A DNA stretch of 64,000 nucleotides from Escherichia coli (lineage in GTDB: Bacteria; Pseudomonadota; Gammaproteobacteria; Enterobacterales; Enterobacteriaceae). Every line of letters begins with the position of its first letter. Within the stretch, counting starts at the first letter, position 1. The position numbers are program-made. The stretch is from NCBI RefSeq assembly GCF_003018115.1, contig NZ_CP027457.1. One strand, given 5' to 3'. Positions 27,001 through 30,000 of the stretch are shown piece after piece.

Positions 27001-30000
27001 TTAAGTAGCCAGCCCGAGGCGTATGAACATGACGGCGGGAACACTTTGTATAACAGCGCAGCAGGTTTTTAGTTCCGCGGCCCGGCGTTAAGGGTAAATG
27101 AGGTCAACATGGATACGCTCAATCTTGGCAACAACGAATCTCTGGTATGCGGTGAGGTTGACGATGGAATTTAAAGATTTACCAGTACCATTCCAGGAAA
27201 TGGCAGCGAATATAGTTCGTTCTCAACTGGCGACTCTTGACCTGAGTACCGTAGAAAAAGAAACCATCGATAATATATCCGGTAACGTGCGTCGAACCTT
27301 TATCGGGCTGTACGAAGAAAAGTGGCCATTCGGCGGACAAAATTCGCCTGAAAACAAGAATCAAGCGAATGATGAGAAGCTGAAACACGTTATCGCCTTA
27401 CTACTGGAAGATGCAAAACGTCTACAGCAACTGGAACCAAATGCAGGCACCGAAGCCCACATCTGGATTGCCATAGAATCACTCAAATGTGAAAGCGATG
27501 ATTATTTAAAAACCATAATTAAAACAACTCAGCTTTCTGAAGAGCTACCGAAGAAATTGCCATAATAATATGTTTTTCTTATAGAGGGGTTAGAAATATG
27601 GGCCAGCATTATAGCAGCCCCATATAACAGAAAGTATTTTAAATATTACGCCGTATCTTGTGATTGTTTTTTAATATATTCATACAAGCGCACAAGTTGT
27701 TTCAACTCTTCAAAGCACATCGCGGAATTTTCAATTTTTCCGGCGTTGATTAGTGCCAGAAGAGCCTGATGTGCGCAAGCATATGGATCATTACAGGGCT
27801 AATAATATCAACTTGCATATTATCCTCCATAGAGGTTCCGGGTTAATGATGGAGACCAACACGCTGTCACGTGTGGTCGTGCGCCGGACACGGATAAGAA
27901 TCCGGCACTGACAGTTTGCTGAAAGGATATTTCCCTGAAAAGTCAGGGCATAACACGAAAGCGCACGGCGAAGTTAGTCTCTCTGTACAGGTCGTCGTTA
28001 AATGTAATTCGATCATGCGCTTCCGGTTGTGGCAATCCGCGAAATGGCGCGGCGGTAAGTATGGCTGGGGCTTCCTCCATTGCTCCAGAAAATGCACCGG
28101 GTCGTCAGGTTGACCATACGCTTAAGTGACAGCCCCGCCACAATACCCATGTGTAGTATTTGGTGGCATCAGTTCTACTCCGTGACTGCTCTGCCACCCT
28201 TTTTAAAGTGAATTTTGTGATGCGGTGAATGCGGCTATGCGCACGCGGAACAGTTAAAACCGTAAAGTGGTCTTTTACGGGGCGTAACGGGCATCCTTCT
28301 GTATTCCGGCGTTAATTGTTAACTGGTTAACGTCACCTGGAGGCACCAGGCACCGCATCACAAAATTCATTGTTGAGGACGCGATAATGGAAACGTTATT
28401 ACCAAACGTTAATACGTCTGAAGGTTGTTTTGATATTGGCGTTCTGCTCAGTAACCGGGAGTTTACGGAAGATGCCATTAAGATGAGAAAATATGAACCT
28501 TATCTTCTCAATGATAATTCCATACTTTCCAGAATTGCCCTTCTTGAACTTGGTATTATCGGAGAACAGCAGTGACTTCAGCATTTGCACTGGTGATGAC
28601 CGTTTTTCTTATAACGGGTGAGCCACAAAATGTGATTACCGGAATTTATGACAGTAAGTCATCCTGCATTCAGGTAAGGGACGAACAAAAAATCCCCGGT
28701 GAATGCCTCCCGTTAAAAAAAGTATCGCTGAACCTGAATAACGAAATACCGGCTGGATAACCAGCCAGCCATATTAACACCATACCAACGGATTAAAAAT
28801 GCCAGCAATGGCAGGGATTCGTTCACCCTGAAATCTGTAATGAGGTTAAAACAAAATGAGTAAGGTCTTTATTTGCGCTGCTATTCCTGATGAACAGGCC
28901 ATAAAAGAAGATAGCGCTGTTGCGGTGGCCACTGCCATTGAAGCCGGTGATGAGCGTCGCGCACGCGCAAAATTTCATTGGCAATTTCTGGAGCAATTCC
29001 CTGCAGCTCAGGACTGCGCTTATAAATTTATTGTCTGTGAGGATAAACCCGGCATACCCCGCCCTGCCCTCGATTCCTGGGATGCTGAATATATGCAGGA
29101 AAACCGCTGGGATGAGGAGTCTGCTTCCTTTGTCCAGGTTGAGACTGAATCAGATCCGATGAACGTCACTTTTGACAAGCTGGCCCCTGAAGTACAGAAC
29201 GCTGTCATGGTTAAGTTCGACACATGTGAAAACATCACCGTTGATATGGTTATTAGCGCACAGGAATTGTTGCAGGAAGACATGGCAACATTCGACGGAC
29301 ATATCGTTGAAGCGTTGATGAAAATGCCAGAAGTTAACGCCATGTATCCGGAACTTAAGCTGCATGCCATCGGGTGGGTTAAGCATAAATGTAAGCCTGG
29401 TGCCAAATGGCCCGAAATTCAGGCAGAGATGCGCATCTGGAAAAAACGTCGCGAAGGTGAACGCAAGGAAACCGGAAAATACACGTCTGTTGTTGATCTC
29501 GCCCGCGCCAGAACCAATCAACAACACACTGAAAATTCAACAGGAAAAATCAGCCCGGTCATTGCTGCCATTCATCGCGAATACAAGCAGACATGGAAAA
29601 CACTGGATGACGAACTGGCCTACGCTCTCTGGCCTGGTGATGTGGATGCCGGAAACATTGACGGCAGCATCCATCGCTGGGCAAAAAATGAAGTTATCGA
29701 CAACGACCGCGAAGACTGGAAGCGTATCTCGGCATCAATGCGCAAACAGCCTGATGCCCTTCGCTACGACCGCCAGACTATTTTTGGCCTTGTCCGTGAA
29801 CGTCCGATCGACATTCACAAAGACCCTGTGGCACTGAACAAATACATTACTGAATACCTGACTACAAAGGGCGTGTTTGAAGATGAAGGAAGAAATCAGA
29901 GCGCAACTGATACTCTCTCGTCGCCAGTACCAGAAACTGATGCAGTGGAAACGGCAATTCCGGACAACGAAAAAACCGAATGCAAAGTGGAAGTCGAACC

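Follow-up and report, generated by a model that had tools for sequence, protein, structure and literature searches.

The function of STnc100 (Rfam family RF02076), a phage-borne small RNA of Enterobacterales, has been termed unclear (PMC12370729). A link between STnc100 and PasD, a small RNA found by RIL-seq (the ligation and sequencing of interacting RNAs) on Hfq and assigned a predicted seed, was proposed in a 2026 preprint that presents the two as structurally homologous base-pairing small RNAs and mentions neither dicF nor dicB nor a pseudoknot (bioRxiv 10.64898/2026.05.13.724894). Here we describe a structured RNA element that resembles these RNAs in its core and that occupies the spacer between dicF and dicB in Escherichia coli. 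The stretch analyzed, hereafter the window, consists of 64,000 nucleotides (nt) of contig NZ_CP027457.1 (RefSeq assembly GCF_003018115.1).

An RNase III event at this locus is itself long known: in K-12, the 72-nt form of the small RNA DicF is attributed to RNase III (PMC5069750, PMC9438474, both citing Faubladier et al. 1990). The K-12 counterpart of the region 5' of DicF, in addition, holds the RNase III site at which the 190-nt DicF precursor acquires its 5' end. The literature on the dicBF operon that was consulted (Faubladier et al. 1990 aside) does not describe the structure of the dicF-dicB spacer.

Several other phage RNAs are relevant for comparison. The put RNA of HK022 is ~70 nt long, consists of two stem-loops and lies near the promoter. 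The lambda sib, N-leader and T7 R sites are simple hairpins that are cut by RNase III, uncoupling cistrons. The c4 RNA of phage P1 and the CI RNA of phage P4, which belong to the Rfam family C4, are excised by RNase P and are ~70-77 nt long.

Fold of the dicF-dicB spacer RNA

The window is a Stx2-converting lambdoid prophage, and the element is the dicF-dicB spacer itself, that is, the leader serving dicB and a DUF1482/ydfD-like gene. It begins 3 nt past the U-run of DicF and stops 3 nt short of the dicB Shine-Dalgarno sequence. There is very little doubt that the element is a sense-strand structured RNA within the early-left (pL) transcript and that it forms an H-type pseudoknot between the junction J2/3 and the loop of hairpin P4. 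Its parts and immediate neighbors are as follows.

28148-28199, plus strand: DicF small RNA (Rfam RF00039; 62 bits and E = 3e-11, the gathering score being 48), directly 5' of the element; its terminator hairpin is followed by a U-run at 28200-28204
28207-28227, plus strand: 5' arm of helix P1, AGUGAAUUUUGUGAUGCGGUG, defined by sequence and fold
28230-28247, plus strand: hairpin P2, with bulged A28243 and the loop UAUGC
28251-28257, plus strand: 5' strand of the pseudoknot, CAGUUAA, in J2/3; pairs with 28319-28325, as indicated by covariation
28260-28309, plus strand: variable middle, with hairpin P3a (28260-28280) followed by a C/U-rich stretch (28281-28309)
28310-28332, plus strand: hairpin P4, CGUUAA/UUAACG, with the loop at 28316-28326
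28319-28325, plus strand: 3' strand of the pseudoknot, UUAACUG, inside the P4 loop
28336-28350, plus strand: hairpin P5, CCUGG-AGGCA-CCAGG, with an invariant loop; abuts the 3' arm of P1 directly
28351-28371, plus strand: 3' arm of helix P1, defined by sequence and fold; the dicB Shine-Dalgarno sequence GAGGA follows at 28375-28379 and the ATG at 28387
28387-28575, plus strand: dicB open reading frame (ORF)
28572-28760, plus strand: DUF1482/ydfD-like ORF, overlapping dicB

The order of parts is thus P1, an AA(U) junction, P2, J2/3, a variable and sometimes absent P3, P4, a UCA junction and P5. An inverted-repeat search places the perfect arms at 28209-28227 (TGAATTTTGTGATGCGGTG) and 28351-28369, 19 nt each, 100% complementary and spaced by 123 nt; the initial annotation had recognized the perfect repeat as one of 17 base pairs (bp), each arm being 2 nt longer than was given there. 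In the RNA, the helix reaches 21 bp (28207-28227/28351-28371) through two further pairs, G28208-U28370 and A28207-U28371. A search of the 64-kb window for perfect spaced inverted repeats of 14 nt or longer within 300 nt returns these arms only. On the plus strand, the 171-nt stretch folds at -69.6 kcal/mol compared to -46.6 +/- 3.6 kcal/mol for its shuffles (z = -6.5; 0 of 200 shuffles equal it). The nested hairpins and the two small coupled ORFs downstream, both present in the initial annotation, were borne out as well, the former as conserved features of the fold and the latter as dicB and the ydfD-like gene.

The individual helices are maintained among relatives despite changes of sequence. 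The bulged A of P2 and its loop of the form U-N-N-G-C are conserved family-wide, and P5 follows the form NNNGG-AGGCA-CCNNN, with stem covariation that includes CCGGG/CCCGG, GGGGG/CCCCC and GGUGG/CCACC. The long P1 is preserved by compensatory changes (AGCGAA...TTCGCT in locus L024 versus AGUGAA...UUCAUU here), and in the Klebsiella locus L007, P1 is a perfect 22-bp helix of wholly unrelated sequence. When four contexts are aligned (this window, K-12 Qin, the Rac-like sieB-kilR spacer and a 90-kb phage-plasmid), two conserved blocks, GGTGAATGCGGCTaaGCGCACGCGGAACAGTTAAAA and CCGGCGTTAATTGTTAACTGGTTAACGTCACCTGGAGGCACCAGGCACCGCA, flank the variable middle. The middle (28260-28309) is deleted or substituted in aligned relatives, and the P3a stem shows a compensatory change in the phage-plasmid locus L003. 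On the minus strand, P3a is followed by TTTTAA and was flagged as terminator-like for antisense transcription, which is probably incidental. The three GTTAA direct repeats found here result from P4 and the pseudoknot as a by-product, and other copies do not conserve them.

Covariation was assessed in two ways. In a MAFFT alignment blind to structure, 82% of the cells are paired, compared to 68% in shuffles and 35-47% in slid controls; the pseudoknot helix is 80% paired in this alignment, with changes on both sides in 5 of its 6 pairs. The second test employed 117 model-aligned matches (88 distinct sequences), the pseudoknot not being part of the model. Here, the whole structure is 85% paired versus 69% when shuffled (none of 500 shuffles as high), and the slid controls reach 34-47%. 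Across 134 distinct combinations of J2/3 and loop, the cognate pseudoknot helix has a mean length of 6.24 bp, compared to 4.49 +/- 0.09 bp for re-paired combinations (0 of 1000). A helix of at least 6 bp is found in 72 distinct versions, with G-U accounting for 64 of the 495 pairs, and the versions across genera include GAGCCACAA/TTGTGGCTT, GAATCCGAC/GTCGGGTTT, AGACTGACAAA/TTTGTCAGTCT, AGGCTAC/GTAGCCT and ATTAACC/GGTTAAT. It is this covariation across the family that supports the pseudoknot, not the shuffling of single sequences, for which the tests are individually weak (p about 0.05-0.1).

Overall, the pairing covaries over a set of more than 250 copies, drawn from the phages and prophages of Enterobacterales and from phage-plasmids related to phage P1. 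In helices P1 and P4, G-U pairs are frequent across the family; therefore, it is the plus (operon-sense) strand that folds, and the molecule is an RNA rather than a site in duplex DNA. The general reading of the initial annotation, a structured RNA that is possibly regulatory for the downstream ORFs, is supported by these covarying pairs and by the strand assignment.

The same observations bear on two mobile-element readings that the initial annotation had offered, a miniature inverted-repeat transposable element (MITE) and a retron msr/msd lacking its reverse transcriptase. The perfect terminal inverted repeat, the length of ~160 bp and the presence of several copies per genome are what such elements would display. 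However, the flanks AAAG and TTGT contain no target-site duplication, the copies in P1-like phage-plasmids keep the core but lose the outer repeat, and all copies with inspected surroundings lie in the sense orientation in phage operons. There is no adjacent reverse transcriptase gene either: dicB and the ydfD-like gene are followed by ORFs that include an exonuclease gene. Given also that the compensatory changes and G-U pairs imply selection on the RNA fold, an origin of this kind is extremely improbable. A prophage deletion in E. coli 042 (L249, 1421-1560) took everything from a replication gene through the middle of the element and left its 3' half in front of dicB; this half-element is a deletion product and is uninformative on mobility. 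A riboswitch reading was also dismissed, by inference, given a P1 that at 21 bp is too stable for switching and the lack of an expression platform in the stand-alone relatives.

Kinship with STnc100, and probably PasD, and the formats of expression

At a relaxed threshold, Rfam aligns 28197-28419 to STnc100 with 36.8 bits (gathering score, 47) and E = 4.7e-6. The Rfam scan proposed in the initial annotation, run at E <= 10, thus yielded DicF and a sub-threshold STnc100 match and no other family; in particular, no ribozyme, riboswitch, C4, Y-RNA-like or tRNA-like family was matched at the element. By analogy, the element may be likened to the P1 c4 and P4 CI RNAs, compact regulatory phage RNAs that are cut out of a longer transcript and lie upstream of genes for toxic or antirepressor products, but it differs from these in the lack of a C4 match even at that threshold. 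A canonical STnc100 is encoded in the same prophage, between stx2B, 75 nt upstream of it, and a nanS-p-like esterase ORF (13258-15204) downstream of it:

15427-15641, minus strand: canonical STnc100 paralogue (RF02076, 160 bits), with its own terminator

A covariance model, R1, built on 32 representatives of the dicB-like and STnc100-like kinds, gives 95 bits for 28214-28364, 106.7 bits for 15478-15618 and no other match in the window; over all loci, it yields 262 matches. The element and the STnc100/PasD RNAs have a core in common that consists of GGUGAAU, the P2 hairpin with its bulged A, the P4 hairpin and UCACCNGGAGGCACCNGGCACC, which closes onto P1; helices P1, P2, P4 and P5 covary between the subfamilies. 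By the measure of sequence and covariation, this core is homologous to STnc100 and probably also to the PasD-type RNAs. The shared core, the covarying helices, the phage-borne distribution in Enterobacterales and the canonical copy in the same prophage unite the element with STnc100/PasD; it differs in its position as a 5' leader, in having no promoter or terminator of its own and in a P1 of 21 bp instead of 8 bp.

The motif TCACCNGGAGGCACCNGGCACC occurs in at least 120 viral contigs, and a slightly shorter motif, CACCNGGAGGCACCNGGCACC, occurs in at least 120 stretches among one-genome-per-species contigs, the genera being Escherichia, Salmonella, Citrobacter, Enterobacter, Klebsiella, Pantoea, Erwinia, Rahnella, Kosakonia, Leclercia and others. 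The few CACCNGGAGGCACCNGGCACC matches in Nocardioides and similar genomes look like chance, none being scored by the model. Three matches in metagenome-assembled genomes outside Enterobacterales do score with the model, one of them identically to an E. coli locus, and look like contamination. The element also has matches with 80-87% identity to the E. coli sequence in Aeromonas phage AP1 (MT713136.1) and an Actinobacillus phage (PP818812.1); these are unexpected for the respective hosts and could reflect contamination, chimeric assembly or mislabelling.

The copies fall into two formats. A terminator-like hairpin with a U-run is located within 100 nt downstream of 82 of the 104 STnc100-like copies versus none of the 40 dicB-like copies, so that none of these 40 copies is a stand-alone gene with a terminator as STnc100 and PasD are. 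Conversely, 34 of the 40 dicB-like copies are followed within 70 nt by a Shine-Dalgarno sequence and a start codon, and the median P1 is 8 bp in the STnc100-like and 22 bp in the dicB-like group. The element belongs to the leader subfamily, which is characterized by the absence of a terminator and a P1 of ~22 bp rather than ~8 bp. Members of this subfamily are placed directly ahead of genes that kill the host or inhibit cell division, namely dicB, kilR, a lambda-Kil-like gene and tciA.

Among prophage members of the leader subfamily, the first ORF starts 22-41 nt past the element. Terminator-less copies are followed by dicB or, in Rac-like prophages including K-12 Rac, by kilR; in Klebsiella, small ORFs come first and then a lambda-Kil-like gene, and in some loci, a Rha-like ORF precedes dicB. 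The K-12 Rac copy (L250, 9664-9802, minus strand) lies 27 nt upstream of kilR and carries a G-to-A change that breaks one P5 pair (CCUGG...CCAGA), which may be decay in a cryptic prophage. In locus L123 (4542-5396), a 284-aa ORF lies between the element and dicB, with similar ORFs in L026, L049, L106, L109 and L161; by eye, its C-terminal part is Rha- or antirepressor-like, and the first ~100 codons may be non-coding.

In P7, D6 and related phage-plasmids, a copy precedes tciA/terB in the C1-controlled tRNA-tci-ban operon. The P1-like operons of this kind contain three divergent paralogues in one operon, with P5 covarying as GGGGG/CCCCC and GGUGG/CCACC. The D6 paralogues (L005) are at 1879-1988, 3494-3628 and 4674-4798, and L003 and L023 are organized likewise; two weak P1-like paralogues (22-33 bits) have a covarying P5 and a helix P1 built on CGGU/GCCG. 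Short-P1 members with a dicB-type core carry a conserved RTGCTCTYNCCRTTG 15 nt 5' of P1 (L003, L005, L023, L041, L146, L153, L166, L182 and L189); these members come from P1-like elements, from Pantoea and from a small number of viral contigs. The possibility that tRNA-like processing is a general rule for the family (a "tRNA slot") was rejected: few copies abut a tRNA (at 2, 43 and 52 nt), and most are ~100 nt away.

Tandem arrays are formed by STnc100-like copies. Locus L096 (6979-7885) contains four such copies with a ~265-nt period and terminator-like hairpins after copies, L207 (412-1502) contains four copies, and L179 (12890-13518) contains five. The variable regions and tails differ between the copies of the L096 array, which is located upstream of a 654-aa ORF.

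The kinship with STnc100 and PasD raises the possibility that the element, too, is an Hfq-dependent base-pairing small RNA in which the fold is a scaffold and the seed resides in the variable P3 loop or the C/U-rich stretch. The treatment of STnc100 and PasD in the preprint and the recovery of PasD by RIL-seq on Hfq are in line with this, as are the hypervariable middle within a fixed scaffold and the different tails of tandem copies. Nevertheless, this copy has no terminator or U-tail, the usual Hfq-binding module; a pseudoknot and a 22-nt near-invariant stretch would be needless for seed pairing; and there is no known target, so that we consider a base-pairing role distinctly unlikely. The near-invariant junctions and P5 loop, together with a pseudoknot that covaries freely, argue that the core may have a three-dimensional binding or catalytic role, not one of seed pairing.

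The prophage locus

The dicF-element-dicB arrangement is widespread: the 501-nt stretch is matched in 4,642 of 5,426 complete genomes of E. coli, and the Qin copy of K-12 is among the matches, at 84% identity. The other landmarks of the prophage are listed below.

15716-15985, minus strand: stx2B
15997-16956, minus strand: stx2A
17050-17298, minus strand: three tRNAs
17442-18263, minus strand: Q-like gene
26191-26835, plus strand: cI-like repressor gene
26905-26933: pL-like promoter, ~1.3 kb from the element
31627-32745, plus strand: integrase gene

Between the cI-like repressor gene and dicF (26900-28150), the analysis detected no protein resembling lambda N; the only sizeable ORF there (27098-27565, 155 aa) matches PHROGs of unknown function. 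The ~320 nt 5' of DicF (27830-28147, plus strand) are untranslated, with no convincing ORF. At a distance from the element, an naRNA4 (RF02564) match at 50736-50804 (minus strand) is barely above its gathering score (60.8 versus 59.5), and ~200 nt from it is a 25-nt imperfect palindrome (50482-50535) with 80% complementarity.

One reading in the initial annotation is that of a put-like processive antitermination RNA. Like put or the Bacillus EAR, the element would then alter RNA polymerase and let an N-less pL operon pass its downstream terminators, a reading with which the failure to detect an N-like protein agrees. The element is indeed an intergenic pseudoknotted RNA in a long phage operon and, like putL and putR, a cis-encoded structured RNA in the early operon of lambdoid phages that may lack N. 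It differs from these in that there is no sequence or structure match: R1 is blank on the whole HK022 genome at E <= 0.01, and the fold is a closed multi-helix pseudoknot, not two stem-loops. The element is also ~1.3 kb from the pL-like promoter, which is unlike the promoter-proximal position of put, and it comes after the DicF terminator, not before it. Moreover, terminator-like hairpins follow 82 of 104 stand-alone relatives, and PasD was seen as a discrete RNA on a northern blot. Antitermination is therefore a highly improbable function of the element.

Probable RNase III processing and possible functions of the core

The reported 72-nt DicF can be placed on this fold. Counting 19 nt past the end of the 53-nt DicF (...GCCGCCC) gives an end at ...UUUUUAAAGUGAAUUUUGU, that is, window position 28218 (cut at ~28218/28219), the mapping being arithmetic from "53 nt" and "72 nt" and good to +/- 2 nt. 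Position 28218 lies inside the 5' arm of P1; the arm's outer end is 12 nt away and the junction is 9 bp away. P1 comprises 21 bp and is continued by P5, which adjoins its 3' strand directly, in agreement with the ~20-22 bp or more of uninterrupted double-stranded RNA that RNase III sites require, and because it is the only duplex available at the mapped cut, it is a probable RNase III substrate. We regard P1 as the likely RNase III site that makes the 3' end of the 72-nt DicF. The comparison with the DicF site in K-12 is direct, given that the Qin locus is the homologue and the reported 3' end falls inside the 5' arm of P1; the difference is that the literature (Faubladier et al. 1990 aside) gives DicF 3'-end processing only, the partner arm 123 nt away, the enclosed fold and the relatives not being described. 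In RNA sequencing of an rnc deletion, position 1649470, annotated as dicF-dicB, has 26 reads versus 0 and 0 in the wild type, a low count and hence weak evidence (PMC5371410 Table S1); by a derived coordinate offset, this position lies just inside the element.

We propose that a staggered double cut in P1, at ~28218/28219 on the 5' side and ~28361/28362 on the 3' side, would detach DicF, leave the dicB mRNA with a 25-nt unstructured leader starting at ~28362 and free a core RNA of ~143 nt (~28219-28361). With its 9-bp closing stem, this core would have the geometry seen in the stand-alone relatives. The selected unit would then be the folded core, which may be produced in three ways, from its own promoter and terminator, by RNase III excision and by co-transcription with tRNAs, and which would act through its conserved three-dimensional fold on a partner, probably from the host. 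As a whole, the combination of a conserved RNA domain, a cut in P1 and a released core is the explanation that we favor, by a modest measure; release of the core as a trans-acting RNA, taken by itself, is a tentative proposal with somewhat less than an even chance. The likeness to lambda sib, the N-leader and T7 R is one of analogy with known sites, a long helix in a phage operon cut by the host RNase III; in the element, unlike in those, the helix encloses a conserved pseudoknotted domain that exists also without the long helix.

Several points weigh against this explanation. The Rfam match to STnc100 falls short of its gathering score, and the cut position in P1 rests on arithmetic, within 2 nt, with the original 1990 description left aside. 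A cut in the 3' arm is undocumented in the literature consulted (which did not cover Faubladier et al. 1990). The site at 1649470, with its 26 reads, is one entry in a long list of candidates; of 19 sites tested from this list, 11 were validated (PMC5371410). A second K-12 site, kilR-sieB 1418510, falls outside the Rac element, ~110 nt upstream of it. Nothing longer than ydfABC-dicF was detected by Ragunathan and Vanderpool. A discrete ~140-nt RNA is not documented in transcript data, and the core has no known partner or activity.

Under a rival reading, the element is a purely cis-acting leader or insulator that serves only to provide an RNase III site or a 5' structure, or the two together, the core having no function of its own. 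Through this site, DicF would be matured, and the dicB or kil mRNA would be adjusted in its stability, translation or Rho sensitivity. The probable RNase III site in P1 and the proximity of the first ORF, 22-41 nt downstream, are as expected for such a leader; that ORF is toxic in some loci (dicB, kilR) and a small ORF before Kil in others. Control of the kilR leader matters, the silencing of kilR being what makes NusG and Rho essential in K-12. However, the same core, with its covarying pseudoknot and invariant P5 loop, recurs in ~200 copies that have an 8-bp P1, their own terminator and no kil gene, and a plain hairpin would suffice as an RNase III site. Pairing of the dicB Shine-Dalgarno sequence with the DicF U-run, in extension of P1, amounts to four weak minimum-energy pairs that are absent from the centroid and is not claimed here. 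A leader that acts in cis only thus appears doubtful.

Returning to the conserved RNA domain, a bolder version, which we put forward as a speculation with perhaps less chance than the cis reading, is that the core, in which GGUGAAU and UCACCNGGAGGCACCNGGCACC are nearly invariant, defines a new class of RNAs with a complex fold that bind or inhibit a conserved host machine, or are catalytic, instead of serving as seed scaffolds. Such a class, in this still speculative form, would be common to STnc100, probably the PasD-type RNAs, the dicB/kilR leaders and the P1-like ban operon and would be expressed by Enterobacterales phages in several formats, among them one beside their genes for cell-division inhibitors.

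The homology of the dicB/kilR leaders to STnc100, the pseudoknot and the long-P1 leader subfamily appear to be new. They tie the leaders of unrelated toxic genes (dicB, kilR and a Kil-like gene) to the STnc100/PasD "virulence-phage small RNAs" and suggest that the latter carry a conserved three-dimensional domain, the role of which had so far escaped attention. The strong covariation makes the family well suited for structure determination and partner pull-down. The element is present twice in K-12, in Qin between dicF and dicB and in Rac upstream of kilR. In the former, P1 offers a structural explanation for the reported RNase III 3' end of the 72-nt DicF. In the latter, the conserved structured leader is a candidate for the control of kilR expression because kilR makes Rho and NusG essential in K-12, and a role of this leader in the Rho-dependent control of kilR is possible.

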